This document shows, piece after piece, positions 22,643 to 58,200 of a stretch of DNA of 64,000 nucleotides. The translations under genes were made by a program, and so were the position numbers. The notes beneath the pieces were generated by a model. That model saw nothing but the letters and a program-made list of their open reading frames with translations, was not told the origin of the DNA and ran no database searches. How positions within the stretch are numbered: position 1 is the first letter of the stretch; each line of letters starts with the position of its first letter. The stretch comes from Psammoneis japonica. Its lineage: Eukaryota. The stretch is taken from NCBI GenBank assembly GCA_008632985.1, contig QPGO01000098.1, forward strand, positions 1 through 64,000, in the 5' to 3' direction.

Positions 22643-22664
22643 AAGTCAAATTGCATCTAACACA

Positions 22665-36465: not shown

Positions 36466-38599
36466 TCATGTAGAGTTTGCTCCATTTTTTGAGTGGCAGC
36501 TATCATCGCAGGTCTTGGGAAGCCTGATCTCATAGATGTTGTCCATGGTGTTGGATCGCCTGATGAGTTTATCTTCAGTGGCATCAAGCTTTGTTTGTTG
36601 ACAGCAATGTGGCCAAGTGACATCAATGGATTTTATCTTGCCCTTTGGACCGAGTCCGAATATGAGACGTTCCTCGACGCCTCCATTATGATCATTTTCA
36701 TGGCTCATGGAACTAACGATTCTTGTCTGGGTCGTCGTCTCATTGTTATATGGACCCATCCGAGTTGCCGTAAGCCTGACAATAGCACCGATAGCATCAG
36801 CAGCAGATGTGCCCAGTCGACAAGCAAAGAAACCATTTTTTGCATCGCCATCACCAAGAGTGTTTCGCAATATGACGGTCGATCCATATCGATAGGTCAT
36901 GATCAGGTCTGTGTATCCGTCGTTGTCTAGGTCGGCTGCTGTGCCACCGAGAGCAGATACTCCGGGCTTGTTTGGTCGATCCATTCTATAGTTGCATACC
37001 GTAAACTGCTGCTCGTACTTAAGGCTGATGCACGCTTCTTCGCTGTAGATGTCGGCACAGGGTCGAGTTCCAGCACCGGGTGCGCGAAGCACTCCGCCAC
37101 AGAACCCATCTCCACCTAGCATTGTGTCGAGGGAGTTGAGAGTTCCGAAGTCGACATCTTCCCCATCTGGGCCTTCCATTATGCGCCATGTCCCATCAGC
37201 GTGGCGTTCGTATATGTCATGATCTCCGGGATCCCTATTGATGACCAGACAGTCTAGATTCCCATCAAGATTGAAGTCTGCAAATCTCATTGCAACAGAA
37301 CCGGAATGAGACAGTTGCACAACGGTATCTGGCTCGTCCAGCTCAAACAAACAAGTTGCGTCTTTACTTTGTCTGCAGCGTTCCTGTCTCGCAGACGACA
37401 AATAAAATTCTAACCTCTTTCTCCATAGAACAGCAACATCAGGAAGCCCATCCATGTCATAGTCTCCTGTAGTGACGGTTCGGATACGATCGCTGTCATT
37501 CGGCGGAGGCGAAGACGAAACTCGGACCAACATTTGCTTTGAATCAAACCTGTATACGTTGAGAGTTCCACGAGGAAACCTTTTGCAGATGTAGTTTGCT
37601 TTGCCAGGACTTGTGAAAACATCGTGGATGTCGCACTCAGATGGCACGACAATCTCTTTTGCATACCCGTCGCCATCAACGTCGGTTATCACGGCCGTCG
37701 TTGCAAACTCTGCGAATTCATTGATGAATCCATCCATTTTTTCCCACGTTCTGCCATCAACATTACGATAGACTCTTCCGGGTAGAACTGAGTATTCGAT
37801 TTCTTTATTGAAACTTCGCTCTTCGTTGAGAAGAACCACGTCTAGCCGCCCATCACCGTCAAAGTCCGCCCAGTACTGATGGCGGCCCCTTTCATTTCCG
37901 CGGTTGCTCCTTCCGTTCAACCCTGCGGCCAGAGCCGCATCTCTCCCACCAACCAAGCGAAATCCAAGATCAGTATTGTCTTTTTGTCCCCAAAAGAGAG
38001 CATTATCATAGTTTGCGGAGTTGCCTACGCCTCTACCACCTCCTGTTACTAGGAACAAATCTTTGTAGCCATCGTTATCTAAGTCCATAAATACTGATGA
38101 ATGTACGTCAAACTGGAATAGAAAACTCGAGTGAGCGGATGATGTCTTATAGTGAGAATGGTCGTCGGCATGATATTATAAATGATACTTACGCAGCTCT
38201 GCGTGTTAACATCTGTCCACTCAATGAAGCCACGGCCTCCATTGGCGGGATAGTATTTGCCCGTTTCACCGTCGCGTAGCACAGCATCCCAATCAACCAT
38301 GCAGCCTCCTAAGACTCTTCCTGGCCCATGTCTTTCTATGCTTGGGTCTGACCAACGGATAGGAGCGCCACTAAACACATAATGATTGTGATGCCACAGA
38401 TCCGGACTCCATCAGAGTTCCAATCGACAGCCCTGCGAAGTAACATTGCCAAAATAATGTAAGGACTCCGTTGTTCGTGCGAGAAACAAGAAAAATTGAA
38501 ATTAAAAACATACATGGCAGTTCCATAGTTACTCATAGGAAGCTGCATCGCAAGCGATGACATTGGAGTCGCATTGTACCCTGGTTGCAGTTCAAACAT
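36466..38599 (-). CDS. FG-GAP/VCBS repeat + ASPIC/UnbV domain protein (CRTAC1-like), with 5' introns; start uncertain
   Basis: Repeated D(F/L/V/Y)DxDGxxD Ca-binding motifs (DLDNDGYKD, DFDGDGRLD, DFNLDGNLD). C-terminal 'DAIGAIVRL...RLIFGLG...IDVTWP' ASPIC/UnbV signature. Confidence 0.85.
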
Positions 38600-39488
38600 G
38601 GCAGCCGATCTCTGTGGCCTCGAGCAAGTTCCTCAATTGGTCTGTGCCGGAGTTTCTTGCCTCAATTGGTTAGAAGACCGGCTCAAGAATAAAGCTGATG
38701 TTTCAGCAACCACAAGAGCGTTGTTGGAAAGAGACAGCTGTCACAATTGAGGAGTATGGAGTCGTCGCCAAACTGTTGCGAACCTTTTTTTTTGTGAGGG
38801 GGATGAGATGACCAACAAAGTCTTTCCCAATCTTTTGTCCGACATCATCGTTGGACATCCATGGTGACGTGGACATAAGTCGATGTCGTTAAGTGCGATA
38901 TTTTTTGTAATGTCGGATGGCTAACTGCCATAATGCAGTTTCATATGAACTTTCCTAAAAGTGGAAAGGACGTATCCTTTTACTTAACGAATCTCATTTT
39001 TGAAACATTTTGTTTTGATGAGGCTGATTATAAGGCTGATTTTCTCACCAGGTTCCTTCCGGTTTGTGCGGTCTTTCGCACTGTGCGAGAGGGAAAAAAT
39101 CTATGACAAACTGAGGGTGGCTTTGAACGATACCATAACAAGTTGCTCTCACATCTCCAAAGAAGGTTTTGACACTTCCCGTACGAGATGATGCATTTTG
39201 ATCAGTTGCCGTTTTCCATCCGTTCTACTTGTACAGCACCAAGAGTTGCCAAAGCAGTGCGCAGGGCCGACCTTTGTGCACTTCAGCATACCAGGTATGG
39301 TGACGACCAGTATGCATCAGACGGGTCCTTCCTTTGTGAATTTCACCTCGTCAAAATGCATGCACGGATGCAATGATGGCTTCATCTTTACACAATCGAT
39401 AGAGTTCTAATCAAAGGCAAACTCATTCACTAAACTACCACCGGTAGAAATAATTCACATCATTCCTGAGCCAGCGCTATTCTCATAT

Positions 39489-40843
39489 TCAATCCTCTTT
39501 GAATCGCAAATACCGCTTATCCGCCACCCTTCTCGGTTTAAAGGTTTGTTTGAGACTAAACAAGACCGCCACACCAAGACAAAAATATCCAAACGCAATA
39601 AAATACCGCGACAACCATTCGTTCTGTCCCCCAAAGACATTGGTGGTGCTCACCACCAACTTTTTGGAGCCTTCAAAGGAAGCAACCTCCCAATTGGCAT
39701 CGATCTGAAACTCCAATTCCGTGCCAGCCGCAATGCGCTGATCGATCCAACCGTAAAGCTTGCGAAAGGTGGGTTGGGCCGCGACACGCATCCAGACAAC
39801 AAAGTGCTCATTCAAAACGCCCTCGAGCGGACTGACAACCTTGGGATAAGTCTGCGTTTGAATGAGAGAGAGGGCGAATACAAAAGTGTTAGTGCCTTGT
39901 ACCACACAACACACGCATGAATATCACACCATACACAACTCCTTTCTGCTTTATACTCACTTCATAGAGATACTGGGTCGTGTTTTCATTGGGATAAAAG
40001 TACCGAAAGCACTCTCCATCTGGGTTTGTATGCGGCAATTTCCCCACACAGGACCACTGTAACCCACCTGGAGTTGTTCCTTGACAACACGTTTCATCAC
40101 AGGCCCCGGGACACTTTTGGGAAAAGAATCCATTGGGTTGATCAAAGAGATACTTGAGATCGGATTCCCAAGCAATGCCGGTTTCAATCATGATGAGCGG
40201 CGTCACACCGTCACTTGCCGTGCTCGTATTGGACAAGGAAATGACATCATTAAAGAGCGTATTGGCAATCAACCCGCACGGATTCAACGTGATGCCTCCA
40301 ACCTTGCCGAGTGGATCACAGACGGATGCTGGTTTCTTGTTGGCACCCTTGAGTTGTTCCAAGTCGAGCGATTCTTTGTATTTGCGGTGATTTTGATGGA
40401 AATTATCAATTTCATAATAAATCAAAATGGGCGGATCCATGTCTTTTGTAGCGTTAAGCGTAATGTTGCAAAGCCTGTTTTCATTGGCCGTGGTAATACC
40501 ACACGGTGACGATGCGTTCTTGTAATCGTCGTAGGTAATCGAGAGTTCCACCACATTGTCACTCCTCTTTTGAACTGTATAACCTGTAAAACGCCGCATA
40601 AAAGTCACGTATTGTAAGGTTTTGTTACAACCCAACAAAACGCTAAGGGTATCATTGTTTCTACTTACCAACAGGAAGAAAAATACAAGCGAGAATAAAA
40701 AATGCACCAATCACCCAATAGGGATCCAAGTATGGATTCCAAGACCGAACCCGTTGCTGACGATAGGCCGTATCCAACGGACGTGAACTCTGCAGATCTA
40801 ACGCCAGGACGCTCTCGTCGTCGTCGGGAATGCTGCCGGCCAT
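39489..40843 (-). CDS. CDC50: CDC50/LEM3 family flippase beta-subunit, 2 introns
   Basis: 'AYRQQRVRSWNP', 'YYEIDNFHQNHRKY', 'PCGLIANTLFND', 'EHFVVWMRVAAQPTFRKLYG', and two TM segments. Confidence 0.93.
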
Positions 40844-41158
40844 GGTGTAATAGATAAACTGTGCTGCTTTTGAGACTGCACGCACAGCAACAGCAACCAA
40901 AACAAAAAGCAGGGTTGAACGTCGCGTGTCGCGTCGGCTCTTTACGTAGCACTCAGTACATTTCTACGTAAAAGCTCGAACTCCATGTTGTTCTTGCAGG
41001 ACGCAGGACGGACCGCGCGAGCGCAATCTGTCCGTCCGTCATGTCGTCGTCTCGTATTTATTTGGATGCGCGATTTCGCGCGAAGAAACCTGGCGGCTAT
41101 GGCGGCCAACAAAAAATAAAAAAATAAAAATCTCATCATAATTTTTCAACATTGGCCC

Positions 41159-41791
41159 ATGGCGTCCCGTTTCAAAATACCGGCACATGTGTTTGCTTAC
41201 AGCATGGCTCTTTTGCCTGCTGTAGGTTATGGTAAGTTATTGTATGGATATATTTTCTACTTACACAAAGATTGCATCGAGCAAGCACATGCCCTCACAC
41301 ACCTTTGTCGTGTTTCATCATTAGCCGTTTATTATCAACGCAACAAGCCGTCGCAAGAAGAAATGGAACAAGTGTTGGCAACCAATTATTCGAGAAATAT
41401 TCAAAGCAATACAGAACGACGACAGGGTGTCGTCAATATGGTTCACGCCATGCAACGTGGTGAACATGAAGCGCAGCTCCAAGAGGTGTTGCACGGAGGT
41501 AAGGGGGAAATCAAACGACAGCATCCCGTCAATCCGGCTCTGTATGGAACACAAGAGGGAGTCAGGACCAAGGATAAAACGACAATGGAAATTGAAGAGA
41601 AAAAGAAGAAAATAAAGAAACAACAACGACAACCAAAAGAAAATGTGACGAGTGCAGCAAAGCCGGCAACAGCCGAAAATGATGTCGATTCATCAAAGAG
41701 GGTGGTGAGCAGTGCAGTTGTGGTTCCTGTTGTGGTTGGCTCTGTCGCTGCATTAGTTGGGTTTTTTATTGGAGGAAGACGATCGTCATGA
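41159..41791 (+). CDS. Hypothetical tail-anchored protein, probable intron ~41232-41323
   Basis: ORF with a gtaagt donor and ttag acceptor; C-terminal TM 'VVVPVVVGSVAALVGFFIGG'. Confidence 0.7.
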   Translation: MASRFKIPAHVFAYSMALLPAVGYGKLLYGYIFYLHKDCIEQAHALTHLCRVSSLAVYYQRNKPSQEEMEQVLATNYSRNIQSNTERRQGVVNMVHAMQRGEHEAQLQEVLHGGKGEIKRQHPVNPALYGTQEGVRTKDKTTMEIEEKKKKIKKQQRQPKENVTSAAKPATAENDVDSSKRVVSSAVVVPVVVGSVAALVGFFIGGRRSS

Positions 41792-41910
41792 AAAAGAATG
41801 ATTATGATTGCTTGTCTTGCGTCATGAGTAGTTTCAGAAATCAACATGCAACACAATTTCTTTAGACCTAGACAGAGATATACATCAACATGAAATAAAG
41901 CACAGTCCTT

Positions 41911-42636
41911 TCAACTATCAGCTGTGCTTTTGTTTTCGATTTTCTTTTGTGATTCGCTCTTCTTGCCTTCTTGAGATGTAAGCCACGAGCTTCCATCTGC
42001 TAAGCCTTCCAACAATTCATGAATGTCTGGAATAATCGTATCCTTGGGAATCTCCACGTCATTACCAAACAAGATTTCTTCAGGTGTCACCTCTTTTCCA
42101 TAAAAGTCCTTGTTGACTTGATGGCGCGGATTGAGTGTGCCGCCCGCCAGGGCGGCGGCAACAAAGGCGCCCTTGGAAAAGCCAATCGCCACGGCTCCAC
42201 CCACACCCTCTTCGGAGGCATGCACCACGCCTTGAGCGTTTCGACCCAACGTACCCACAGTCAAATTTGCCTGCGCACCAATGTTGAGAGACACCTTTCC
42301 GGTATAGGACTTGAGCGTTGCGTCGTTCATTAAGAATACCAACAAATCGCGGTACGAGGCACCCGCGACAAAGCCAACTCCACCCGCCACGAGACCCAAG
42401 GCCGATGGGGGACTCCAAGTTCCGTCTTCTTTACGAACCATGATAATTCCGGTACCGACACTTCCGCTAAAGATAAATCCAGCCTCGACAATATTTATAA
42501 TAACAATGCCCTTGCAGTCTAAAAACAAAGCTTTTGGTATGCCCACAACTGTTTCTCGATCCGTGGCCTTATCAAGAACTTTTAACGAATTCCACAACAT
42601 GCCCTCCATGCTGGTTGGATCCGGACGTTCTGCCAT
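41911..42636 (-). CDS. Ysc84/SYLF (SH3YL1-like) lipid/actin-binding domain protein
   Basis: 'IPKALFLDCKGI...EAGFIFSGSVGTG...WSPPSA...SKGAF...VNKDFYG...PEEIL' match the SYLF domain. Start MAERPDP. Confidence 0.9.
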   Translation of the reverse strand: MAERPDPTSMEGMLWNSLKVLDKATDRETVVGIPKALFLDCKGIVIINIVEAGFIFSGSVGTGIIMVRKEDGTWSPPSALGLVAGGVGFVAGASYRDLLVFLMNDATLKSYTGKVSLNIGAQANLTVGTLGRNAQGVVHASEEGVGGAVAIGFSKGAFVAAALAGGTLNPRHQVNKDFYGKEVTPEEILFGNDVEIPKDTIIPDIHELLEGLADGSSWLTSQEGKKSESQKKIENKSTADS

Positions 42637-43003
42637 GATAATTCTGGATTGTACGATAGTCGAGATCAAATAATGTTCTTTCAGAAGTAGAGAGCGACTT
42701 CAGGCTGTTATGTGTTAGGGGAACTACCTGACCTGGTGTCAACTACTCAACATAAACATGCAGATACCGTACAGAAACGAATAACGAATAGCGAGGGTCA
42801 ATCCGTCGCCGCAGGCAACGATTTTTTGAGTTGCTGTTTTCTCCCTCCGACATTTTATTTTCAATCCTCATGAATTTAGTACTTTAATACTTTGATCACC
42901 CGGAAGTCTGACTCAAGACTTCCCTCCGACAACACAATGACGTGTTTCGCGCCGCTATTTCATTCTCATCGTTGCTTCTCATTGGATCGGGCAACGGGAA
43001 ACC

Positions 43004-44850
43004 ATGGTGTTGGCAAAATGGACCTTTGCGTTACTTTTATTTCTGACTTACAAGAGCGATGGGTTTTTGTCTCCATCATCAAGCAGCAGTACATGGCATG
43101 TGTCAACATCATCTCTGCAAATGAGCAGCAAGGCATCACAAGACATTCCAACCGAAACCGACGTGGTAGTGATTGGATCTGGGCTTAGCGGACTGAGCTG
43201 TGCGGCCTTGTTGGCACATTGTGATGTTCCAACGCTTGTATTGGAATCTCATGATGCCCCGGTGGTGCGGCTCATTCATGGACTCGTCGAGGATTTCATT
43301 TCGAGTCGGGGCCATCCTTGTATTCTGGATTTAGTATGGACGAGTCACCGAATCCACTCAAAAATGTCTTTCAAATTATTGGAGAGGAGCCCGAGTGGAT
43401 CACCTATGACCGATGGGGTACAGTATTGCCCAACGGAGAACGATTTGCAGCCAAAATTGGTCCAGAAGAGTTTGGTGATGTCTTGAAACAACACGGTGGT
43501 CCCGGAGCACAGGAGGAGTTTGAGGCGCTCATGGAGCGCATGTCGCCCCTGTCCAACGCGGCGCAAGCGTTGACATCCATGGCACTTCGAGAAGACGCAG
43601 GAGCCGTGTTGACGTTGTTGAGATATCCCAAGGAATTGTTTGACACGTTGAAACAGGGACAAGCATTGAATGAACCCTTTGCCAATGTTATGAAAGAGAT
43701 GGATATCAAAAATGATTTTGTCAAGAATTGGCTGGATATGCTGTGCTTTTTGCTTCAAGGTCTACCAGCAGCTGGCACCATGAATGCCGTCATGGCGTAC
43801 ATGTTGGCTGATTGGTACCGTCCGGGTGTCACGTTGGATTTTCCCAAGGGCGGGAGCGGTGCCATTGCAGAAGCCCTCGTTCGCGGAGTAGACAAGCACA
43901 GTGACAGCCAAGTGTGTTTGAACTGTCATGTTTCTGAGATTCTTGTGGAAAATGGAAAAGCGGTTGGCGTTGTTTTGGACAATGGCAAAACAATTAAAGC
44001 AAAGAAAGCTGTTGTATCCAACGCAGACCCGTACGTGACATCGAAGCTTCTCTCCAAAGCCCGCGAATCCGGCGAGACAAGCACAGAATTGAATGAATAC
44101 ATGGACTCGCTAGTCAACACTGATGCTGATACAGGTGGAGTACCCGATTTGAAGAGCTTCATCCATATTCATGCAGGTATTGATGCAAAGGGTTTGCCAG
44201 AAGAGGCATCCGCAGACTTCCCGGCTCAATGGGCTGTGGTTCGTGACTGGGATGCTCCAGAGGGAGTCGAATCGCCCAGAAACATTGTTTTGTGCTCCAT
44301 GCCATCTCTCATTGACCCGAGTTTGGCTCCCGAGGGGAAGCATGTCTTGCACGCTTACGTACCCGCCACGGAGCCGTATGAGTGGTGGGCAGGAATGGAT
44401 CGTAGCTCGGATGAATACAAGAAAAAGAAGGAAGAGGCTGCAGATTTCTTGTGGAGTGCAATCGAGGAATATGTTCCAAACGCACGGAAACGTGCTGTCA
44501 AGGGCACGGTTCAGATTGGTACACCATTGACACACGAGCGATTCCTGCGTCGATCAAGAGGCGCGTACGGGTAAGTTGGTACTCGTTTTGCAAGTTGTTA
44601 TTTCCAAATAGAAGGCATGGATTCTAACTTTATTTCTTGTTCGCAATGCAGTCCACGAGTGGAGGCCGGAAAACAAACTCTACCTGGTCACAAAACGCCA
44701 CTGCCCGGTTTGTTCCTTACTGGTGACTTTACCTTCCCAGGCATTGGTGTTCCAGCTACTGCTGCATCAGGAGCCATTACCGCTAACACTTTGGTGTCCG
44801 TTAGTCAGCACTGGGGTATGTTGGATAAAATACGGCTACCGAAGAAATGA
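43004..44850 (+). CDS. Plastid-targeted carotenoid isomerase-like (CRTISO/CrtH, phytoene desaturase superfamily) FAD oxidoreductase
   Basis: Signal peptide with SDG^F cleavage. Rossmann 'VVIGSGLSGL', 'FESGPSLYSG', 'FPKGGSGAI', 'GTPLTHERFL', 'FPGIGVPA'. Intron ~44571-44651; 1-nt deletion in a C-run at ~43258. Confidence 0.9.
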
Positions 44851-45064
44851 AGAGAAGGCGGATCTAGAATTAACCATCTTCTCTCAGCTAGCTCGCTAGA
44901 GTAATATTCTGGTTACAGACTCCTCTAATAAGTCCCAGTTAGCATGCATTTGAAAGCTCTAGAGGCATTCCGCTAAATCATGGTTTTGACGCGTATTGTA
45001 GCGTAGCAGCGTCGCGGAATCAACCATGTCGAGGATTGCTGACCACGTCAACAACTATCACTTC

Positions 45065-45530
45065 TTAATGCTTGGCCTCTTCCTCGCGAAGGTGCTGAAG
45101 CTGAATGTCCAGCTCGTGCTCGATCAATTGAAGGTCCAACTCCTCGTCAGAACACATACCAAAGACCTCGTTGCGGATCCTTTCGTTGTACAAGTCTGAG
45201 GAACGAAGCGAGTAGCGAGGAAGATCAAGTACACTTCTGTGAGACTTGTGCGTTTCAAATATCGTTCATTCAATCTGCACGCTGAGCGTACATCGTTCCG
45301 CAGTTTTGGCGATACTTGCCTTTTTTCAACTCTTCGACCTCAGCCACAGAGCATTCACCAGCATGCTCTGCACATTCCCTCGCCCTATCAATGTCGGAAA
45401 AGAGACATTCCTCTTGATCCAAGCCTGCAGAAAGAACAAATCGGCGACCTACAAGAGCAGGTCGAGGTTGAAAGGAAGCCGCCGTCGACAAGCCAGCGAT
45501 GAACACAAGGTACGAGAAAGAAGACATCAT
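45065..45530 (-). CDS. Small plastid-targeted hypothetical protein, one intron (probably GC-AG)
   Basis: Presequence 'MMSSFSYLVFIAGLSTAAS^FQP' (ASAFAP-like) and 'RARECAEHAGECSVAEVEEL'. Second exon 'LYNERIRNEVFG...LREEEAKH*'. Confidence 0.75.
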
Positions 45531-48118
45531 GGTGGTGTCAACAATGCAGTGAAGAGAATAATGCTTCTCGTTCTATGTTCGCAATGCCGGAACAAGATTC
45601 GGAGTTTTGTTGCCGGCTTGGATGCAGTTTTGTGATGTGAAACAGCTGCGTTTCGCGTGAAACAACAACAGCCTGGTCATCCGTTGCGTCATGATGACGT
45701 CTTTCGTCCCGCTGCCGAGCGAACCTCATCCCGAGTGTGTTTCATTGCCAGGCAGTTGTTTTGCATTTGTTGGCTGAGGAGTGGCAGGTTGTGTTCTAGA
45801 AGAAGAAGTGATGGAGTTCCCAAAAATGGAAAAAAGAGTTAGAGCTCCACTTTGCTTGTGGCACAACACACGCCATGGCGTGCCAACAAAGAATGCTCTC
45901 CTTCTACTTGAAAAATGTGAGCTCACTCATTCTAGAAAAATTGCAGCCACGCAAATGGGGAATTGCACCAAATTCCCACTCACTTGGATTTTGCATCGCG
46001 TGTCAAAACTTTGCGCCATTGCTGCTTGCATTGTGGTCAGCTCAGCAGGAGTGCTCAGGCTGTGACGCATCTTGCGCGAGTGATGCCATCATGCTGCTGT
46101 GCATCACTGCAGTTGCCCGGGGGGCAGACAATGTGCAGATGCTGCGTGCATGGATGCTCAAGGCATTCCTCTGAGATGTGCCCCCAAGTTGAGGAGAGCC
46201 ATGAACTTTTGGGCCGTGCTCTCCAGCTGACAAGCGCAGCACCTGAGCAATGCTGCGCGGCCCGATGCTGCTGTGCACAAGAGGCCAATGCACAGCATTG
46301 CCAGGGTGTCCAGCAGATGCTTGCCACACACTCTCCCATGACTTGGGATGTCAAGCATTGGAGTGTGCTGCTAAAGACAGGGCACAATCTGTCACAGTTT
46401 GCACATGTCTGCAAGCACGCCATTCTGAGCACGCAAGGCGCCATTGTCATTCCTGCTCCACACAACTCTGGCTGGGCCTGTGTGACAGTCAGCGCCATGC
46501 TTTGTCTTTTTTGTTGTTTGAAAAGTGTCAATCATCTGACAGTGCATTGATGCTCCTTTTGTTTTGCATTTTTAAGCTTGTCTTTGGGCAGATGAGCTCC
46601 TGCTTTCTGTCTTCCAGGTGCAAACTTTCACTTGGCAGAATGGGCAACAGACAAAATTTCATCCCATCTGAAGACCACCTCTGGGTGCAAGACCTGTGTG
46701 TGTGGTTGCATGCACTGCAGCATGTGTGAAAAAAGCTGCAGCCGACAGGATGCCACTCCAAGGGTTGCCCTTGTCCAGCTCCATCTGTGAAAGGCAGAGG
46801 TCTCAGACTGCACAAGAGTGGTCCCTCCCAGAACCACACTGAGTTGTCAAAAACACATCTGGCTGTTCAGTTGATTGTCCTCAGCAACATTGTGCTGTCA
46901 GTGCACACACACAAAGGCTCTCCATGGCACTCCAAGACACTCCAAGCTTGGAAAACAACAGACAGAAACAACGCCAAGAAGTGATGTTGCCCTCCTCCTT
47001 GCATCCAAGGAGCCGTGCAGTTGCACACTTGCTTTGGACTGAACAATTCTCTCACACAGCCAGCCATTTTTGCCCATGAACACAAAGGCAGTTGCACAGT
47101 TCTCTCACAAACCCACATGTGCCAAACATGGTTGCCTTCAAACACAACTGCATTTCTTGCAGATCTGCTGGGTCTTGCTGCCAGTGCAATTGCAGTCTGC
47201 AAAAATTCATGAAATGGATGACTCAAAGGTCACACTCGCTTTTGACTGGAAGAAGCAAGAAGCAGCCAAGGACATCAAGGAGAGTGGCAGATGGTGTTTG
47301 GTTGCATCTGAGCCATTCTGCAGCCAGAAGTCAATCTTTGTGGGGAGTCTGCCAGCAAATTGCAAAGAGCCTTCTTCCATGAGAGGAGCTCTTCTGCCCC
47401 AAAACCTGAAACTGCAAACTGCTGAGCATTGCCAGCTCAAGAGCGCAGTTTTGGCACAGTGATGCACCCAACACCAGCCATCAATGCCCATGCAAGTCTG
47501 CTCTCCCTGTGTGTCCTCTGCAGGGTTGGCTGCACAGACTGCTGGCTGCTGCGCCGCCGATTGGTCGCTGCAAGCTGTGCCAAAATGGAGTGTTTGGAAG
47601 AGCTGCCAGGAGAACAATTCTGCCTCTGTCATTTTTTGCATGACTTAAATGGTGGCCAATGGAAACAATTGCACCTGTTTGTCTCTTTTGCTCTGCACTG
47701 CCTTGCTTGCTGCCTGTCATCAGTTGTCCTGGTGCAGTTTTTTCACAACACAAGCGGCGCCGTTGTTGCACATTGCAATGACAAATCCCACAGCAGCCCT
47801 GCCCTTTCCCGCGTCCTTCATTGCCTGCCATCTTTTCACATGTCCTGCTGACTGCTCTTGAGCTTTTGATGCAAAATCGCAGTGGGAGGCATCTGAGACG
47901 CAACTTGTTTCAGTTCCAGCATTGCTGCGCTGGTGTCGAGCTAAATGTGACATCCGTCTGTGGGATTCTACCCAGGACACAGGTCCCATCTGTAGAACAT
48001 GCTGCTGACAATCAGCACAAGGCACTGAAAGCCAGCAACACAGCAATGAGTTGTCTTGCCAACTTGTGCTCAGTTGAAATTACAAGCTAAAACCAATGTA
48101 AAAGTGATTCTCTTGTTT

Positions 48119-51100
48119 TGTAATCCCAGAGATCTCGAATGATGCCACGTCAGAAAATGGACATTCTTTGAATGTCATTCACGCAGAACATGCACTGAGG
48201 GTCACAGTGGAGGTTCGACACTTGCATTGAAACTTTCTGATGTCTGACTTAGCCGTGTGGAAATTCTGAGATGATTGGACGTCTCTGAATGTCCACAGTC
48301 TTTCTAAGATGTCACACTCCCTTTGAAAGTGTTGGGCAAAGCTGTGACTTGATCTAATTCACCACTTGAGGAGCTTCTTTTGAAGGCAAACAAACATGTT
48401 TTGAGGCACAGGCTTGGTCTCCATGTCTGCGATTTGTTGAGTGGTGTCAATGGGCAGAATGGAAATGATTCCCTTCCCAACATGTTCCTTGAAATGATGC
48501 AGCTCCAGATTGAAATGCTTGGTTCTTGGTCTCATCTTGGGCAGTTTTGCAATTTCCAATGCACCTGAATTGTCTTTGAATGCTTTGCAATGAACTGAAG
48601 GAGTCTTGGATGGAACCTTGTGTCCACACTCTTGAAATTCCTTGACAAATTGATGACAGGAATGGTGCTTCGGAGTCGGCTTCTGTCGCACTTGGTGCGA
48701 TTTGTGTCTGAATCTTAGATGTCCAAACTGCAGGGCAGTCCGTGCAGGCAATGACGCATCCGGTCCTGGACTTTGAAGCACTGACATCAAAAGGCACAGT
48801 CATTTTGTTCCAATTGCCTGCAAAGTCTGCATCGGCATGAACTTCCAATGACTTGTCTTCCGTTGGTTCAAGAATGATGACACCTTCACATCTGGTTGCC
48901 TGCAAGCACTTGCAAACCACAGTGCTGCCTCACCATGTGATTGCTTGGGGTGCTTGAAAATCATGCGATTTGATGTGTTGCACAAGCCATGTTGGGTCTG
49001 CTGCACTTCTCGAGGAAGTTGAGCTTGCCAACCACAGTTCGGCAGTCAAAAGAGCTGTCAAATGGCTTTTCATTCTCGTGTTGGTGCAGTGTCTTGGAGG
49101 ATGATGCTGGAGTTTGCTTGTCCGGTGCGCGACATGGTGAGTTTGCCATTTCCAGCATCTGCTGCTTGATCATCTGCGGTTGCGTGAGTTTCACACATCC
49201 ATCAGGGAGGGTCTCGATGCTGACACCAAGATGGTCATCAATGCTCCCTTGATCGTCGACATCAAAATTCTCATTGCGCATGTCGCAACAGCAGCTTGGT
49301 TGACAGCAGCCTTGTCTGGTGAAGCAAAAATGCCATCATCAACATGATGTGTGAAAATCACATTTCCTCTGCAACAAGACATTTGTCAACTTGTGATTGT
49401 TTGAAACCAATTTTCTCCAGACCTTGCCTCAAGTGTTCACCCCAAATTCTGCCTGCTTGTTTCTGTCCATGTGGGTTTTTCAGCAACTTCAGAACATCAG
49501 TTTTGCCATCACCACATTTGGTTTCAATGCCTTTTGGCAGTTCCACATGCACGTCGCACTCGATGTTGGCATGAGGACAGGCCAGCACAAAATTGACTTG
49601 GCGAGGCTGCCACCCATTCAGAACGGATGGGATGAGTGGGAGGCAGACAGTGTTCCAATTGATGACAGCAGCATGAGTTTGAAAGCAGTCAACCGTGCAC
49701 TCTTGTTTTCCACCATGCACACTGAGCCTTGACTTGCACTTGTGCACCTTTCTTGTTTTGATGTCTCTCTTTCTCTTCACAGACCAGACCACTGGGAGTG
49801 TGTCTGCACCTTCTGGGACTTCTTCAACAGGTGTCAGCACCCAGTGCTTGCACACAATGTGGTCATTGACCTCCTTGATGCACGCTTTGATGAACTCATC
49901 ACGGCCCGATTGTCTCACAGCTTGATCAAAACACATGGCATTGGGTCTGTCTTGGCCAGAAAGGCAAAATGTGAGTCCATGTTGTCTTGCAGCTTGCAGT
50001 CGTCCTTGTGCATTGCATTGCGGCACTTGCAACAGGTCAATTGATGTGATGCGATGCAACACCAGCGGCCTGTTGTCACAGGCTTTCGACCATTCGTTGC
50101 GTCGGTTTGCATGCTCCGCCAGACCCGCCAACACTTGGTTGTTCCGATGCTGTCTCTTGAGTGTCTTCAGGTGGCAGATCTCCTGTTGATTTGGTCATCT
50201 TGACCTCAGTGATGGGGAAATGTTTGTCTTTGAGTTGTCATGGAATGTTGGGTTCCGGCGCCAAAGTGATCTGCGCTGGCGCAGCGGAGCGTGGCTCCCT
50301 CACTTCCCTTTGGGTCTTGAAGACATTGAATCTTGATGTTCTTTGTTTCTCGAGTCCTGGTGCAGTTTGCCATTGCAAGAAAGTGGGTGCATTCCCTGCC
50401 AAAGGGCACGCCATTTCGAAGAAGTCATTGAATTGGATGTGAAACTGCGGCGAGGCAAGTCCCGTCTCAAGGTTGAGTGCTGGATTGACTGATCCGGCGT
50501 GTCTTGGAGATGGTCCCAAGTTGATCCCCAACCTTGCTCTTGATTGCCATTTGGGCACTCTCTGTCCACTCTGCAGTTGGCTGTCCAGTGCATGGACTGG
50601 GCATCCGAAAGTGTGATGTTGCTTGAGATTCGGAGCTGCCTTGACGGAGGTGAATCGCTCAATTGGGGAGCTGCCATCTTCGCAGTCAGGCAAGTTGTTC
50701 TTGAGCTTGTTGGTGTTGCGCAGTGCACTTGGCCAGAGATTGATCTCAAACGCCATTGGTCATCTTGCTTTTGCACGCAGCAGCTGCTTGCGAGTCTGTT
50801 CTTGCAGGTTGCGGATTTGCTTTTTGGCAATGCCATTTTGGAAGTGGGTGTTGACGCCCCAGCATGACATGGTTTGGCCTTGTTTCTCAACGTCTTGCAT
50901 GAAAGCATTGTCAGCAAATTGGCTGTTGTTGGCATGGCAGTGTTTGATTTGGACATGATGTCATCTTGCAAAGGCTTCAAAAGCATGCTTGGCCTTCAAG
51001 GTTTCTTCCAAGGCAAGTGCAGTGTGCATGCAGACAAAAGGTTGTTTTTGTCACGCCCTTTGTGACATTTAAAGGCTGCAACACGTCGCCGTGGTGCATC

Positions 51101-52597
51101 AACTCTTGTTGGCAGCTGTGCGTTGCACTCCTCCCCATGTGTCACGCGTCCATGCGGCTCTTTGCTGACGTGCACTGACACTGCACGGTTTTGGCAGAAC
51201 AGTGTGGGTGTGCACAAAGGAACAGGCAGAACTGCACAGAGTTTCACATGTTCGACAGTGATCAACGTTGCTGCAGACAACTCCCACTCAGGGTTTTGAA
51301 CCTCTGGCCTCCTGCCCAATGGTTGCGATGAACCACTCCACTGTGAATTCACAATGCAGCATGCATGCAGACAAAAGGTTGTTTTTGTCACGCCCTTTGT
51401 GACATTTAAAGGCTGCAACACGTCACCGTGACACATTGACTCTCATTGGCAGCTGTGTGTTGCACAAGTGATCGTTGCAGGAACAAGCACTGCTGTTGCT
51501 GCTCTGCATTGCTGTTTTGCAGGTCTCCCTTTGAATTGAGGGATGAAGCCTGGGGTCAAGCTTTCAAGTTGATCTGCTGACATCACCTCCCCTGGCTTTG
51601 CAGCAACATGCATGTTTGATTTCCATTTGGACTTGGCATGCCAAGGGCGTTTGGTCATGACGCCGCAGAGGCAGCCAGCACATTTGGGTTCCTTGACCTT
51701 CAGGAGGCATTGCGGGAGGATGCCCAACAATGCAGCTAGGAGCTTGATCATTTTGAATGATTGGTGTCCGAGGTTTCAGTGCCAATGCAAAATTTCACCT
51801 TGGTCATTGGTGGCCACTGGGGCATGATCATCAGGGATGACGTTGATGGGGTCTTGCAGGCGGGTTTGGACTTCTGGGGTTGCCAGATCCTTGAGGTTCT
51901 CATCAGGTGAGTCAGATCTGTGTGCAGCATCCATCAGTTTGAACAACAATGGCACTTCCTCATCATCATTGTTGCACATGCCTTGGGTCTCGTGAGGACC
52001 TGTCTCATCAGGACTTGTGAAGGTGCCTTTGTCATTTGCAGCGTCCGCGGACTCTGAGTCGTTTGCGTCGTCTGGAGGCATTGTGTGCATTTGACAGGCT
52101 GCGTGTTCAACAGTCTTGATGTCCTCAGCAGCATCAACTGCAGCGGCAAATGCCCAACAGTCAGTGGCACCGGGTGTGGAACGGAAGCATGCAATGTTGG
52201 AGTTGTTGGTCCAAGGGACCAGCCTTGCGCACTTCCTTTGATCCCACATGAGCAGGAGACTGTCGTCGCAGTTCCAGGAAGTCATTCCGTGTGGTTCAGG
52301 ACAATGATCCTTGGCTTGCTGGCTCCATTGCTGAGGGCAGAGGAGGCAAATGGGTGAGTTGGGAACATGCAGTGCATCGTAGATGGTGATTGTGTGCACC
52401 TGTCCGTCATCATCCTTGATGCGCCATTTGATTGTTCCTTCTCCTTCTGCACTCAACCATCCGCCCACTCCCTTGGTCCGCTTGTTTGCAGGACATGGGT
52501 CACCAACAAAGTGCGATCTGTCATTTGACATTGTGCAGGTTGCGTGGTTGTCAACACCAATGATGAAGGAGTCAGAGTCGCGGGATGCTGGTTCCAT
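48119..52597 (-). mobile_element. Decayed Ty1/copia LTR retrotransposon (diatom CoDi-like pol), 5' part not recognisable
   Basis: Domain order: protease (IGVDNHAT), GAG-pre-integrase (CAGCLCG), integrase (WPSALR, HTFGCPV), RT (KSRLSVHGGKQ, HVDDG), RNase H (DADFAGNW, SRTG, QIADMETKP). Purine tract aaagggag precedes TG at 48316, the putative 3' LTR start; LTR end near 48119 is uncertain. Confidence 0.92.
51018..51464 (-). mobile_element. 447-bp TRIM-like non-autonomous LTR element nested in the copia integrase region
   Basis: Two 110-bp direct repeats (51018-51127, 51355-51464), each TG...CA. 4-bp TSD caag (51014-51017, 51465-51468). PPT GGGGAGGAG on the - strand immediately before the 3' LTR. 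Confidence 0.88.
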
Positions 52598-53223
52598 CCT
52601 CGGCCCTCATTTGAATGGCGTCGTGGTGGTTGAGGTGTTGGCGTAGACTGTCTTGTGAAAGGTGATCTCGCACTGAGCCTTCTTGTGTGCCATTCAAGCA
52701 GGGTGGCCCTTCTCATGGTGGATGATGGAAATGACTGAAACACACATCGGATGTTGCCACAAACATTTTTTGTCCTCGTTTTGGCTGAACCATCAGACGG
52801 TTCAAGTTCTCCGTCCCTTCCCCAACAGGGACACTGCCCGCGCCACCCACTCCGGCACTTCCAACCACTGGCGACTTTTTGCTGTCTGTCCCCGGCGTGC
52901 CTCCAAACTGTGTTCAATGTCATGAAAGCTGCAATCAACAACATTGTCTTTGCTTTTAAAGACTCCGTTTTTCAATCTTTCTTGGGGCAATTCGACTCTT
53001 CATCAGCTGACGTGTGGCTGACATCCGGAACAGTGCTGCACACACTGCAACAGCAACAACACAAAGGGATGGTCATCCATGCCGATTCACCCCAGTGCTC
53101 TGATGTAAGACAGCAACACTTGTCAGCATCCTCTTGCCACTGGCATCCCCAAAAAAAAACAGGACCGAAAGTTTGGCTGCTGCCTTTTAGGGAAACATGA
53201 CATTGCTCCAGGCCTCAACAACT

Positions 53224-54500
53224 TCATTGTAGAGTTTGCTGCCAGCTGATGCAGGTGCCGATGCAGTGCAAACCACCATGGGCCAAGTGTTGCACGTGAG
53301 CCTGTTTGCTGAGAACATGGGCCAATGCCAGACCATCGTCACGAAGTGAGACGATCTTGGTGGCGTGGGGAGCATCCAAACCCCCTGGAATGTCCAAAAT
53401 CGGGTTGATGAGTCGAGCCAAGGCTGTCTCCTGATGCCACCTGGACTCTGTCCAGGCGGTCCAATTGGATCTCACTGCCAAGGGATCTTGGTTCTCCTCT
53501 TCCTTTTCTGGAGGAGGCGGAGGTGGCAAACCCAGGTGCGTGCACCAGCACCACCACAACCAGTCCATCGGCGGGAACCATGACCTGGAATTCATGCAGC
53601 AGCTGATGGAATCGGCGGCTGGATCAAGCATGGGTGCAAATGTCAATGACGTTTGAATTTGACCAGGATGGCAATGATGACCTTCCATTGTGGCCATGGT
53701 GGCCAGATTGCCGCCGGCCGAAACTCCCAGAAGATGCAATGGATGGTTCGGCAATGTTTCCACAAAGTGCAACAGTGCCGTCAATGTTTCCGTCACGGCC
53801 CTTGGGAATCTGTGGTCGGGGGCCAAACTGCACTCAACCGAAGCCCAAATCAATGGTTGCCCCACACGTGTGGTGAGTTCGAATCCGTCCGGTGCACTTG
53901 CCGCACCAATGTGCATCCCTCCACCATGAAAGTCCACCACGATGGGAGCATCTGCTTGGAACTTGTCTGGATCCAATGCTGTTTCCATGGTCCAGCAACC
54001 GATCTCGTTTTTTTCTTTGCCAAGATCACCTGCCTGCTTGCAGATCGATTGGGGGAATCGAATGATGACAAGAATGTCATCTTTGGGAAGATTGTTTCCA
54101 GGCCACCACAGTCTGCTTTGTCGCAAATGTTCCGCTCTTTCAAAACACCAGGTCGACACGGCATCCTGTGATGGCACTCCACGATGTTGCAGCGCATGCT
54201 TTTTGTCCATTCTGTGATGTGTTTTTTGTTCGTGGCAGGAAAATTGGAGGCAAAACTGGCGCGGAGCTGGTGTGTTTCCACCTGCGTTCGACGATTGGCA
54301 TGGGTCGTGGGCAGAGATGGAAACTGATGCGTGGGCAGCATGATGCTGAGCAACCAAGTGCACAAAACATCCAACCACATCCTGGTGGGGTGGAAGAAGG
54401 GACTGTGAGGCTTCTTCTGACTGCCGGGCTGCAGAGGAGGAGGAGTTCCTTGAGTTGTTTTCCCTCCTTTGGACGAGCAAGCCACTTTCGTTCCTGCCAT
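53224..54500 (-). pseudogene. Decayed hormone-sensitive-lipase-family (Abhydrolase_3) esterase
   Basis: 'VDFHGGG', 'VECSLAPDHRFP' (family consensus VxYxLAPEHxFP) and 'GVSAGGNLA'. Frameshifted, with no Tyr in the 452-aa ORF-track translation. Confidence 0.8.
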
Positions 54501-54989
54501 GGTCTGAATGCTGTTGAGATTGCAGAACAAAAAAAATCAAGGGGATGAACACACAACAACAAAGCAAACAAGTGCAGAGCACAACGTGTTTTCAGGTGAC
54601 GACGTGTGCAGGATTCATCCATTTGCTTCTTTTCACTGCCAGCAGTGCATGCGTGCACGAGCACGACACACAGGGAGTTCCGGGTTTTCTTCCAAACGAC
54701 TGAAACAATTGAAACCCGGAACTTCCAGTGGAGCGGAGAATGAAATGAGATTCAAGATTTGGTGCGTGCGGGCTGGCGCACGCACGTTTGGCAAGCCAGC
54801 CAGCACACTTTGCTGCATCCAAAACAGCGGCACGGAAAAAGCAAGGGAATGGGAAAACTTCAGTTGGACCGTTTTTTGACGCAGCCACGGCAAAGAGATT
54901 GCCATTGTCATTTCACAGTGCTGCGCTGGTGCTGATTGACAGCAAGACTGCAAGAAAGGGAAGAATGTGGGGCAAAACCAGCCGGTCGA

Positions 54990-55200
54990 TGGCGATGGGG
55001 AAACGCAAGTTTCCTTGGATGCAAGATCAGGGAGAGAACGTGTGCGATGTTGCAAACAGGGTCTTTTGTGACAACAGTCGGTTCGTGATGGACCTCATTG
55101 AAGACAAGAACAGCGTGCTCTTCACGCATCCTTTGCAACTGGGCAAGACGACACTGTGGTCGCTGGCGGAGCTCCTCCTCAGCAAAAAGAGGACCTCGCA
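54990..55200 (+). pseudogene. Decayed AAA-ATPase-like (PF09820-type) N-terminal fragment
   Basis: 'FCDNSRFVMDLIEDKNSVLFTHPLQLGKTT' versus the family pattern YxDxxxxI...LFxRPRRxGK(S/T). R->H/Q changes fit CpG decay. Confidence 0.5.
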
Positions 55201-58200
55201 TCCCAACCAATCACATGAGCCGCCACCCCCAATGGGAAGATGGAGCTGGTCTCAGTCTCTTACAAATGCTGCAATGCAGCAACCTCATTTCTTTGGATGA
55301 TCCACAGACAATCATTTTGTCTGTGACTGCTGAAAAAGCACCCAAACACATGTTTAGTTCAATGAAGTTCATCTCTTTGCATTGACGCAAAACAAACAAT
55401 CTCGCAACCAAGTCATTGGCACAGAGCTGTCATTGACATGTGTGTGTTTGCCGGTGTGGCCTGGACCGCGCGAAGATTGTCAAAATGTCAAAATGGCATT
55501 TCAACATTGACGGGGACCCCCCGCAAGTCTGTGCAACCATCCAACGGAGCATTTTTTGCGAGTTGAACGCAACTCTTCTCGTGTTGTCACCACGGTGACC
55601 TTCCTTTGAAGTCTGTTGCATGCCAACCTTGTTGCAGCTGTCCTGCTGGCGATCCTTTTCAACAAATCGTTTGTTCTGCTCCTGTTGCTGACATTCAGTG
55701 AAAAGGATCGCCAGCAGAAAGTGTTTTGCAACAACAACAATTGCACCTCAATGTCGCCGTCACCAATCAGCAGCAACACCCCAAACGCCTCCAAGCCGGC
55801 TCAAATGGAAGAAAAAGCCGGCAATCCTGGCAGATGATGCACGGGGCCAGCATGGAAGAAAACCAGGGTTTCAGTGCCATGGGTGAGTCGCAAAATGTCA
55901 ATGTTCCTTGTCAGTGTTGCATCAACGTCTTGCATCTCACAAACGTTCATTTGGTCGTTGCAACTGTCCTGCTGTCAATGCTTTCACACAAGTCATTTTT
56001 TCTGCTCCCATTGGTGACGTTTGATCGAAAGGATTGACAGCAGCAGGCATTTTTGTGACAATGATTGTTTGTCTCTATGTCGCCGTCGCCAAGCCAGCAA
56101 CACAAAAAACGCCTCCACCAGGTCATCCAAATGGAAGGCAAAGCCGATGGAAAGAAATGAAGGAAGAGGCGCAAGCAAGAGATGTGGAATGCCCCAAGCT
56201 GTTCCTTTGTTGATGGAGAAGTTTTGAGTGTGAAAATCACCACAAGCTCTGTCTTTTGTGGATTGGTGGCAACAAACAAACATGCATTCAGTCAGAGGCA
56301 CCGGAAACAAAAAGGGAAAGTCAAGATGTCTCCTGTGGGACATTCACAATGCCTGCCCATCAGAGAATGACAGTTTGAGGGTTTGAAACATGGTCTGAGC
56401 TGGGACAACTGCAGCTAGAAACACTGCTGTTTGTCAGCATGTGCAGCATTTGCCACAACTCTGCATTCCAGGTTTTGATTCTACAACTCTCATTCCAGGT
56501 TGTGTCTGACAGAAAGACTCTACAGAGTGTCACACTGGTGTCTCACAATGGCAATTGCTGCAGTGCTTGAGCAACTCCTGCACAGAGAAACACCCAACAC
56601 ACCAGTTGTGTTGCGTTCTCGTGGATGGGCTTGATTGCAGTCGTTGTCGAACAGAAACACTCTGCAAAGCATTGCATTGGTGTCTTGTGATCATGTGTGA
56701 ATGGTTGTTGCTGTGCTCAAGCAACTCCCACACAGAGAAACCGCTCTCGAGCGTCATCCTGCCGCATGCCGGCACGCAAGGGCACGCTGCTCCACCGCAG
56801 CTCATTTGCAGAAGCAATCGACTGATCAACCAATTTCTCGCCCAATTCTTTGGATCCGCCATCATCAACAGTCTCGGAATCTGACTCAATGTGATGTGTT
56901 TCCGAATTGCCAGAAGCATCGGGAGAAGCATGACCTTTGTTCTTCTTGCATGTGCGAGTGGCCTGCTTCCGACAAAGTCTGAATTGCCTCCACCACTGCC
57001 GCGCCGTCCTTTTCCCTCGCGTTGCTGAGGAGATGTTTGTTCCCAATCCTTTGAGGAAGACACCCTTCAAAATTCTGTGCATCACAGCAACCATGTTGGA
57101 GTTCTTCACCCGCCAGAGCGACAGCGCAGTGGCACTTGCCTCTGCAGTCGTTTGCTGGGAGGGCAACTGAATTTGATGCGCCTTAGAGGCAGATGAGACA
57201 TTGGACTCATGGAGTCCTGGAAAGCCACCAGATTGCAGTGACTTCAGCACAAGGTCACTGTCCATCCACACACATGGAACCGCAGCTGGAAAAGCGGCAA
57301 TGAGAAGCCACACAGCCTCGACAATCTCCGTGGTTGGTTTGCTGTTTTTGTGACAAAAAAAAACATCACGCAGCAACCACGGAGCTGAAGGAGCTACGGA
57401 CAACGTACAGACTTACGGGGGGTCCCCATTAAAAGGGCGGTCCAGAGATTGCCTGGTGCACTTTTTACGTAGAAACTGCCAGAGAGCCAATCACGTACAT
57501 TCCTGCACAGACGCAGTGCAAAACAGAAAGCATGGCACTCCATCACGCGACCTCACGACGACACCACCTGATGACAACGCATCAAAATGGCATCGTCCGC
57601 ATCTTTCTGCAGCTCCTCTTTCACTCACCCGATTGCTCCAAAAGGGCCAGGGGAAGCTAACAAGCTTTCTCTCACAATGGAGCAATGCAAACAAAAGTTG
57701 TTTTTTATTCCAAAATCTCAGAGCACAGTGCAACCGATTGTCAAGGCGAACTCGCACGTTGGCGGCAACAACGCCAGTCAATGTTCACTCTAGAACAACA
57801 ATGGAGACGTGACACCCCAACAAAATAAAGTCCATGCCCCCATGACAAATTTTAAAGCTGGTTCTTCTTGTTGGTGTGCAATCTTTAGCTGCTTTTTAGA
57901 CTTGACAAAATGATCATCTGCCCCGGCTGTCACCCTCCAAGTTTGTTGCATTGGCTGACAAATTGGGCAAGCAAGCCACACATTTCTAGCTCACAAACTA
58001 CCTTGCAGCCAAAAGAAGCAATCTAAACTTTCAGAACAGCCATGATGCACTGGTCTGCCGAATCAAACTCCGCATCACCAAGTGGAGGCGGGGAGAACCA
58101 TTTTTCAAAAATGCACTGTGAAGGATCTGAGCTCTTGAGAGCTTGTCCAGCTTTTGACGCCATAGCCCCAAATCACCACATTTGTTGTTAAGTCAGCCTG

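Follow-up and report, generated by a model that had tools for sequence, protein, structure and literature searches.

The 64,000-nucleotide stretch of Psammoneis japonica DNA analysed here (positions 1 to 64,000 of contig QPGO01000098.1, assembly GCA_008632985.1; hereafter the window) carries on its minus strand a degenerate Ty1/copia retrotransposon, which lies inside a chromosomal block from which the dinucleotide TA has been almost completely erased (Table 1). A Pfam search of the 209 open reading frames (ORFs) of at least 100 aa in the window, with a relaxed rerun on 39 of them, assigned pieces of the element to the families Pol_BBD, SH3_retrovirus and RVT_2, the last of these (PF07727, the copia-type reverse transcriptase) on 49358-50194(-) with E 4.7e-16. 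Collinear tblastn alignments place, from 52723 down to 48362, the Pol_BBD region, a zinc-finger/integrase region with SH3_retrovirus, RVT_2 and an RNase H region, and an integrase that precedes reverse transcriptase and RNase H within one polyprotein is the Ty1/copia arrangement. All 33 long relatives of the element (E 5.5e-71 to 6.1e-30) contain PF07727, and full-length relatives (1233-1377 aa, identity 52-61% over the reverse transcriptase part) are collinear with the element in at least six frame segments. A first-pass annotation of this DNA had placed the element at 48359..52597; its start region stands and its end does not, the coding part continuing to ~52723. The host is a diatom, because an amine-oxidase (carotenoid-isomerase-like) ORF of the window is 84-85% identical to Nitzschia, Pseudo-nitzschia and Chaetoceros proteins.

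The element no longer encodes a functional polyprotein. Its reading path needs at least five frame changes and holds ten in-frame stops, all ten of them TGA, a repeat interrupts its integrase region, and the tyrosine of its YVDD motif is now a histidine, all of which agrees with the earlier suggestion that the element had been inactivated. At the integrase-region insertion the protein alignment skips from 51455 to 51038, and the two 113-bp copies that flank the inserted segment retain the same TTAA. The segment itself (51129-51352, minus strand) has a tRNA-derived look, with a T-arm-like GGTTCAAAACC; ARAGORN found no tRNA genes in the window, although 51280-51345 appears tRNA-derived. Because its summed contig depth reaches ~38000 in run X1, a public DNA data set apparently from the same organism, against ~60 for single-copy DNA, this segment is probably a repeat resembling a short interspersed nuclear element and present in hundreds of copies. 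No long terminal repeats were recognised around the element when its flanks were compared in purine/pyrimidine code (alignment score 95, shuffled mean 101, maximum 125); they may be lost, short, or located beyond the stretches compared.

The element is conspicuously poor in tyrosine: its aligned path of 1429 codons has only 2 Tyr, beside 56 Cys codons and 66 for His. The first-pass annotation had drawn attention to eight degraded copia motifs (LHVP, CAGCLCG, HTFGCPVHAL, KVHKCKSRL, QTHA, HVDDG, EVHADADFAG and SRTGCVIAC), all of which we recover in minus-strand translations, and had read them as conserved tyrosines turned into histidine or cysteine. This reading holds when the element is scored against 32 relatives (P0001-P0033 minus the tyrosine-poor P0004), a column being called conserved where at least eight relatives aligned and at least 70% of them agreed. 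The window retains 394 of the 531 conserved columns (74%) and none of the 23 conserved tyrosine columns, 19 of which now read cysteine (11, as TGY) or histidine (8, as CAY) and four another residue (L, F, S, I). Control residues were retained at 25/25 columns for Phe, 15/16 for Trp and 40/44 for Gly, and the further replacements found in excess (V>A 5, L>P 4, I>M 3, I>V 4, T>A 4, R>Q 5, D>N 7, A>T 6) are those expected from loss of TA or CG. Six of the eight motifs fall within the 23 scored columns, and there the intact relatives carry tyrosine rather than histidine or cysteine, in 19/20 at codon top coordinate 52369, 19/21 at 51667, 19/24 at 50594, 23/32 at both 49744 and 49675, and 21/23 at the YVDD codon (49346). 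The other two, both RNase H motifs, had fewer than eight relatives aligned, and a 12-sequence consensus reads VYADADF and SRSGYVIxYAGCP at these positions. The baseline for such change is low, since 76 metagenomic relatives keep tyrosine in 1245 of 1479 conserved columns and show cysteine or histidine in 30 (2%). The loss is shared by the alpha/beta-hydrolase gene that neighbours the element, where conserved tyrosine is gone from 4/4 columns (3 Cys and 1 His, by comparison with 12 relatives).

A dinucleotide scan resolved the window into a mosaic of sharply bounded blocks, of which those with TA erased total ~33 kb of the 64 kb. Per kb, erased and gene blocks differ in TA (2.6 vs 39.6), CG (20.3 vs 54.7), TG (112.2 vs 77.6) and CA (108.1 vs 75.5), while the sum of these four dinucleotides is 243.3 vs 247.4 and AA, TT and AT are little changed. 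Values of rho_TA in the erased blocks are ~0.02-0.07; the element (48359-52723) has 6 TA in 4365 bp, a rho of 0.023, and TA depletion is not a lineage trait of its copia relatives, 80 loci of which have rho 0.37-0.82. TA-free stretches reach 2354 bp, within the element, and one of 2031 bp (53231-55261) spans the hydrolase region; in the gene blocks there is one TA per 25 bp. The signature extends over ~6.9 kb of the copia-bearing block beyond the element, including the hydrolase gene, and the TA loss is thus block-wide and not specific to the element. Pfam-recognisable host genes (CLASP_N, DHFR, FG-GAP/ASPIC, CDC50, Ysc84, amine oxidase) are confined to TA-normal blocks, and among ORFs of at least 100 aa in the erased blocks none but the hydrolase and the pieces of the copia element reach E 1e-4, with sub-threshold matches to zf-RVT (0.046), AAA-ATPase_like (0.015) and DUF309 (0.021) left unused. 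The two stop codons that contain TA share in the depletion, TAA and TAG together numbering 4.3 per kb over both strands in erased blocks vs 32.6 in gene blocks.

Table 1. Principal features of the window, with the copia element and its surroundings first and the remaining blocks in order of position.
Feature	Position	Strand	Basis or content
Degenerate Ty1/copia polyprotein: protease-like barrel, integrase, reverse transcriptase, RNase H	48362..52723	-	Pfam and tblastn
YVDD tyrosine codon, now CAT (His)	49344..49346	-	Tyr in 21/23 relatives
Insertion/duplication splitting the integrase region	51016..51465		113-bp direct copies 51016-51128 and 51353-51465 flank the tRNA-like segment
Alpha/beta-hydrolase (acetyl esterase/lipase-like) gene	53193..54482	-	Abhydrolase_3, E 3.5e-13; directly upstream of the element
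TA-erased block holding the copia element, ~11 kb	45934..57184		29 TA, 335 CG, 1269 TG, 1152 CA in 11250 bp
TA-erased block at window start	1..3440		6 TA in 3439 bp
TA-erased block	6204-6857		dinucleotide scan
TA-erased block	10911..13262		2 TA, 21 CG in 2351 bp
Largest TA-erased block, without recognisable genes	15110..29272		holds the 20379-21310 piece and the 775-bp tandem duplication 27649-29204
TA-erased block	32374..34427		4 TA, 22 CG in 2053 bp
Ordinary host gene block, internal control	34801..45700		453 TA in 10899 bp; DHFR_1, FG-GAP/ASPIC, CDC50, Ysc84, amine oxidase
TA-poor milder block, most CpG kept, runs off the window end	61601..64000		18 TA (1 RTAY, 9 YTAR, 8 mixed), 124 CG in 2400 bp

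The TA dinucleotides that survive reveal a sequence-context rule. Eighty-eight remain in the erased blocks, 55 as YTAR and none as RTAY, by comparison with 145 and 311 of 946 in the gene blocks (Fisher p 6e-21 and 6e-15, respectively); relative to scaled expectation, 0 of ~435 RTAY, 33 of ~686 mixed and 55 of ~203 YTAR sites survived. All ten NTAN classes agree with a four-parameter model that treats the two strands as independent and lets only the following base determine how fast an A is changed (chi2 6.9, df 6, p 0.33); a model of uniform survival fails (chi2 200, df 9). The fitted rate-times-time values of 3.25 for TAT, 2.16 for TAC, 0.88 for TAG and 0.44 for TAA give the sensitivity order TAT > TAC > TAG > TAA. 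Survival counts fit a rule of A before a pyrimidine and a rule of T after a purine alike, and the outcome counts separate them: in Y_Y context TG:CA is 2282:1561 in erased vs 1065:893 in gene blocks (p 0.0003), and this excess of TG identifies the A:T pair whose A precedes a pyrimidine as the one converted. It follows from this 5'-TAY rule that tyrosine codons are the most conspicuous victims, with cysteine expected by default and histidine mainly after a purine. The erased blocks thereby demonstrate that chromosomal DNA underwent A:T>G:C conversion on both strands, restricted to domains, specific to TpA and with a preference for TAY. We consider it likely that the element is a copia retrotransposon caught in a diatom chromosomal domain that underwent DNA-level, context-specific hypermutation of TA to TG or CA on either strand.

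The alternative that survives best accepts such a process and changes its chemistry. Here the thymine of 5'-RTA-3' would be the target of a TET/JBP-type enzyme and become, for example, 5-hydroxymethyl- or 5-formyl-uracil by oxidation, and mispairing with G would then yield T>C. Oxidised thymines do mispair with G, some protists carry 5-hydroxymethyluracil preferentially at TpA, and at the level of the duplex the 5'-TAY and 5'-RTA rules are identical whichever partner is altered. However, no sequence feature favours thymine, the TAY context resembles the TadA target UAC(G), and the only published case of TpA hypermutation proposes adenine deamination, also without proof, so that we regard an attack on thymine as unlikely.

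The distribution of the loss along the chromosome bears on a second alternative, in which TA disappeared by slow untargeted decay or by selection against it, through avoidance of nuclease or transposon targets or through GC-biased gene conversion. Many genomes show a mild shortage of TA, and the gene blocks (39.6 TA per kb) and relatives (rho 0.37-0.82) of the present data conform to this. The erased blocks, in contrast, have edges that fall within 200-1000 bp; in a 200-bp profile of the copia-bearing block the left edge lies in ~45600-45934 and the right one is more gradual, at ~57184-58300. Gene-adjacent intergenic DNA retains its TA (18 in 200 bp at 44800), and conserved residues were destroyed inside the blocks. 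The loss of TA is near complete and that of CpG partial at a point where 394 of 531 conserved columns are still kept, and the changes are transitions only, with AA, TT and AT little altered, which speaks against GC-biased conversion. Such decay or selection is therefore very unlikely as the origin of this pattern.

The direction and order of the changes were addressed through strand counts and internal duplicates. TAY>TGY and TAY>CAY both occur on one strand of the element, in the proportion of 11 to 8 given by the tyrosine columns, and for this reason both DNA strands must have been changed, as the first-pass annotation had argued. TG and CA are close to even in six blocks, among them the copia-bearing block (TG:CA 1269:1152) and another (595:588), with none of the strong strand bias that editing of a single strand would leave, and a runs test found no one-strand tracts of TG or CA in six blocks (z -1.85 to +0.82). 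Between the 113-bp copies that flank the insertion in the element there are 12 differences, every one a transition, and eight of these make up four TG/CA doublets; the tandem pair of 775 bp (27649-29204) shows 37 transitions, 2 transversions and 7 TG/CA doublets. In purine/pyrimidine code the two pairs are 100% and 98.3% identical, the 775-bp pair being 93.6% identical in letters. Contigs from run X1 differ from the window in the same manner, with transitions at 826 of 987 listed differences and TG>CA doublets among them, for example at 47292/47293 and 56062/56063. The changes are restricted to transitions at pyrimidine-purine steps. Because the duplicates diverged from one another by TG/CA doublets and the hydrolase gene was hit as well, hypermutation took place after integration and in place, and these observations support a DNA-level process on both strands.

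The same evidence bears on editing of the element's RNA or cDNA before integration, whether by ADAR-like A>I conversion or by deamination of single-stranded cDNA. Animal retroelements are reportedly known targets of RNA and cDNA editing. A 5' U preference of ADARs is also mentioned in the main text of a preprint on Bigelowiella natans (bioRxiv 10.64898/2026.01.13.699255). Such editing is nevertheless at odds with the ~1:1 occurrence of both directions on one strand, with the signature in ~6.9 kb outside the element, in the hydrolase gene and in blocks without a recognised retroelement, and with the TG/CA doublets that separate the 113-bp copies inside the element; we judge it extremely unlikely. 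The preference of the first-pass annotation for a DNA-level process over single-strand RNA editing is thus upheld on three counts: both strands were affected, non-retroelement DNA was affected, and duplicates were resolved independently.

The signature is not confined to the window. A metagenome contig scan yielded 80 copia relatives, none of which has rho_TA <0.3 and 76 of which are without the signature; four loci (L041, L056, L066 and L078), on contigs whose names share one assembly prefix, show it at a partial stage. Relative to the other loci, TA density in these four is 0.19-0.27 for RTAY, 0.56-0.68 for mixed and 0.93-1.68 for YTAR sites, and their Y_Y ratio of TG to CA is shifted (p 1.4e-7). 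Together they contain 71 conserved tyrosine columns, with 22 kept and 35 turned to cysteine or histidine. Kept tyrosines are preceded by a pyrimidine in 16/22 cases, and histidine follows a purine in 21/22 and cysteine in 7/13 (Fisher p 0.006; pooled with the window 0.0009). In L041 (1-7000) RTAY sites return within the last 800 bp, indicating a local effect. The best match in a library of 1.84 billion proteins, P0004 (919 aa, 0.76% Tyr), keeps tyrosine at 3 of 22 conserved columns and has cysteine at 12 and histidine at 4; judged by its sequence, this database entry is a hypermutated copia ORF that was held open by loss of TAA and TAG and annotated as a protein.

Such replication also bears on the possibility of an assembly or base-calling artefact, in which modified DNA in silent chromatin was misread and TA is really present. 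Modified bases can give systematic long-read errors, and the fraction of sampled 31-mers of 43001-53000 found in run X1 is 0.66, but a strand-wise miscall would also yield TA and CG consensus calls, none of which were seen, and sequences of other assemblies, namely four metagenome contigs and a database protein, bear the signature too. X1 contigs moreover run over TA-free DNA at 49972-50338 (367 bp, 4 other letters) and 51740-52225 (486 bp, 11 other letters), where ~15-19 TA would be expected in each, although X1 may be the source data of the window; the probability that we attach to an artefact is accordingly slight in the extreme. Two further candidates, APOBEC-type C deamination and repeat-induced point mutation (RIP) proper, were rejected for the wrong direction of change, the latter on account of TA being lost and CA and TG gained.

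Loss of CpG accompanies loss of TA in most blocks, and is less complete and more variable (CG observed/expected 0.06-0.68). The two decays are independent across organisms, because each occurs without the other. TA loss without CpG loss is found at 20379-21310, at 61601-64000 and in L041, L066 and L078; the first of these pieces is TA-free with 58% G+C and 67 CG (observed/expected 0.85), and the four metagenome loci that bear the TA signature have CG observed/expected of 0.75-0.91. CpG loss without a TA signature occurs in other relatives, such as L073 and L049. Five relatives (L073, L075, L049, L060 and L063) are CpG-depleted, with observed/expected values of 0.27-0.38; cysteine or histidine stands in 1/16 conserved tyrosine columns of L073, and the other four have fewer than three each. 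The 20379-21310 piece overlaps a 354-aa ORF (20540-21601, plus strand) to which no Pfam family was assigned. Transposons of diatoms are reported to be CG-methylated (PMC9998398), and we read the conversion of CpG to TpG and CpA in the window as ordinary 5-methylcytosine deamination of silenced DNA, separate from the TA process and slower.

The hypermutation of TA in this diatom domain, returning to our preferred interpretation, converts A:T to G:C at TpA on either strand, and the replacement of tyrosine by cysteine or histidine is its codon-level readout. The agent would be enzymatic, with a DNA adenine deaminase as the likeliest candidate; deaminated adenine, hypoxanthine, is copied as G, and a member of the TadA/ADAT group would be suitable, given that the natural TadA target is UAC(G). 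Silent, repeated or foreign DNA might be picked out by its chromatin state, by small RNA or by its repetitiveness, and the process could serve genome defence by disabling elements through missense changes. Stop-poor ghost ORFs are left behind, because the process makes no in-frame stops and removes TAA and TAG.

Several observations weigh against this interpretation or limit its reach. The altered base could be A or T, both of which fit the sequence equally well. TG/CA doublets between duplicates can derive from CpG too and are not pure evidence of TA change, some of the surviving TA may be newly created and not resistant, and ancestral states were taken from relatives 50-60% identical to the element, not from an unmutated sister copy. 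Within the window the split of cysteine and histidine by preceding base (10:4 after a pyrimidine, 4:5 after a purine) has the predicted direction at p 0.38, and the RTAY tyrosine codons of the four metagenome loci gave 21 histidines and 7 cysteines where the simple model predicts about even numbers. Repetition alone may not account for the targeting: the hydrolase stretch has a summed contig depth of 53-58 vs ~60 for single-copy DNA (run X1, depth figures with caveats, parts of the block being multi-copy) and a search with exact purine/pyrimidine-coded 36-mers found no dispersed repeats shared between blocks in the window, only 11 local tandem segments. Finally, the evidence here is a sequence signature, whereas the B. 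natans preprint reports measured de novo mutation.

Additional features of the window surround these main subjects. Between the coding end of the copia element and the TA-free DNA that follows, 48081-48355 holds 7 TA in 275 bp, denser than the rest of its block, and may be a younger piece or a joint between blocks. The hydrolase gene, whose 12 relatives are 33-41% identical to it, has a frame change or an intron near 54100-54150. An assembly gap of 153 N (3445-3597) adjoins the first TA-erased block. In the milder block at the end of the window, a 486-aa ORF (61899-63356, minus strand) has a weak zf-RVT match (E 0.046) and could belong to the end of a non-LTR retrotransposon extending beyond the window. 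A second run, X2, appears transcript-derived, and most TA-erased bins are uncovered in it, which does not count as evidence on expression. One X2 contig omits 124 bases at 45195-45320, bounded by CT..GC on the plus strand and hence GC..AG on the minus strand, a pattern that points to a GC-AG intron removed by splicing, just within the TA-normal DNA that borders the erased block.

The significance of these findings extends to genome annotation, enzymology and the biology of mobile DNA. TA-erased DNA presents long ORFs in all six frames and predicted proteins without tyrosine and with excess cysteine and histidine, as P0004 exemplifies, and transposons in this state will be under-detected by similarity searches and repeat finders; purine/pyrimidine-coded comparison and the ratio of RTAY to YTAR offer simple detectors. 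The sensitivity order TAT, TAC, TAG, TAA constitutes a biochemical fingerprint which, with two distant hosts now at hand, opens the enzyme to a search by comparative genomics and to in vitro tests, and a natural DNA adenine deaminase working on chromatin would interest the base-editing field. Saturation in a diatom together with partial environmental copies suggests that the process occurs widely in algae of ecological dominance. More speculatively, lineages of the stramenopile-alveolate-rhizarian (SAR) group (diatoms, chlorarachniophytes and perhaps others) might share a defence in which a TAY-specific DNA adenine deaminase descended from TadA/ADAT acts on silent, repeated or foreign chromatin and erases TpA until the DNA is coding-dead and yet stop-free. 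We put this forward tentatively, as a proposal somewhat more apt to fail than to hold; if true, the shared defence would be the chemical mirror image of fungal RIP and would generate many annotated orphan ORFs in these genomes.

Comparison with known systems places these observations in context. Targeted hypermutation against mobile DNA is firmly known in fungi, as RIP, and in animals, at the level of cDNA or RNA, while its TpA form has so far been the subject of one 2026 rhizarian preprint. Fungal RIP resembles the process described here in making dinucleotide-specific transitions at the DNA level on both strands and in ruining transposons in place within sharp bounds. It can also reach adjacent single-copy DNA. 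RIP converts CpA to TpA, enriches TA and makes TAA and TAG stops, whereas here TA is destroyed, GC raised and stops removed. Decay of 5-methylcytosine at CpG accounts for the CG>TG/CA share of the changes and cannot remove TA. The APOBEC3 and ADAR systems of animals likewise inactivate retroelements by deamination and leave hypermutated genomic copies, but they act before integration on one strand of cDNA or RNA with a biased G>A or A>G outcome, where the present process affected both strands and non-retroelement DNA.

TadA and ADAT enzymes, and the base editors derived from them, convert A to I after U or T, as in the TAY context found here, although the natural enzymes act on RNA hairpins and not on chromosomal DNA domains. 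Bacterial TadA is reported to edit a UACG core and to recode Tyr UAC to Cys (PMC11472039), and a native TadA substrate is reported to contain CUACGAA (PMC6506237). In contrast to that UACG core, TAT is here at least as sensitive as TAC.

The closest precedent is that of B. natans, a chlorarachniophyte with giant-virus and virophage inserts, for which the preprint's main text (Mettrop et al., bioRxiv 10.64898/2026.01.13.699255) describes de novo TpA>TpG/CpA mutation of two viral inserts in mutation-accumulation lines, with every change at TpA and a rate of ~6e-7 per site per generation, and proposes an ADAT2 homologue as the agent. As in the window, the reported changes are almost only A>G and T>C, fall at TpA on either strand and are confined to discrete non-host regions. 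The main text also describes other TpA-depleted, CpA- and TpG-enriched clusters, which are enriched in reverse-transcriptase and transposase domains, and there too a single-copy target is possible. A literature search on TpA hypermutation returned this preprint only and no diatom report within its open-access scope, subscription-only papers not being covered, and the TAY rule is absent from the preprint's main text (supplements excluded), where terms for trinucleotides, flanks, CpG and diatoms do not occur. The two cases differ in host group, B. natans being a rhizarian and the present host a stramenopile diatom, and in extent, the main text giving a rho of 0.45 for a B. natans viral insert vs ~0.02-0.07 here over about half of the window. 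They differ further in their targets, which are viral inserts in B. natans and here a copia element, a tRNA-like high-copy repeat and a hydrolase gene, with CpG decay alongside in most blocks. What the window adds to this precedent is TpA hypermutation in a new phylum, at saturation, with a context rule and with environmental replication.

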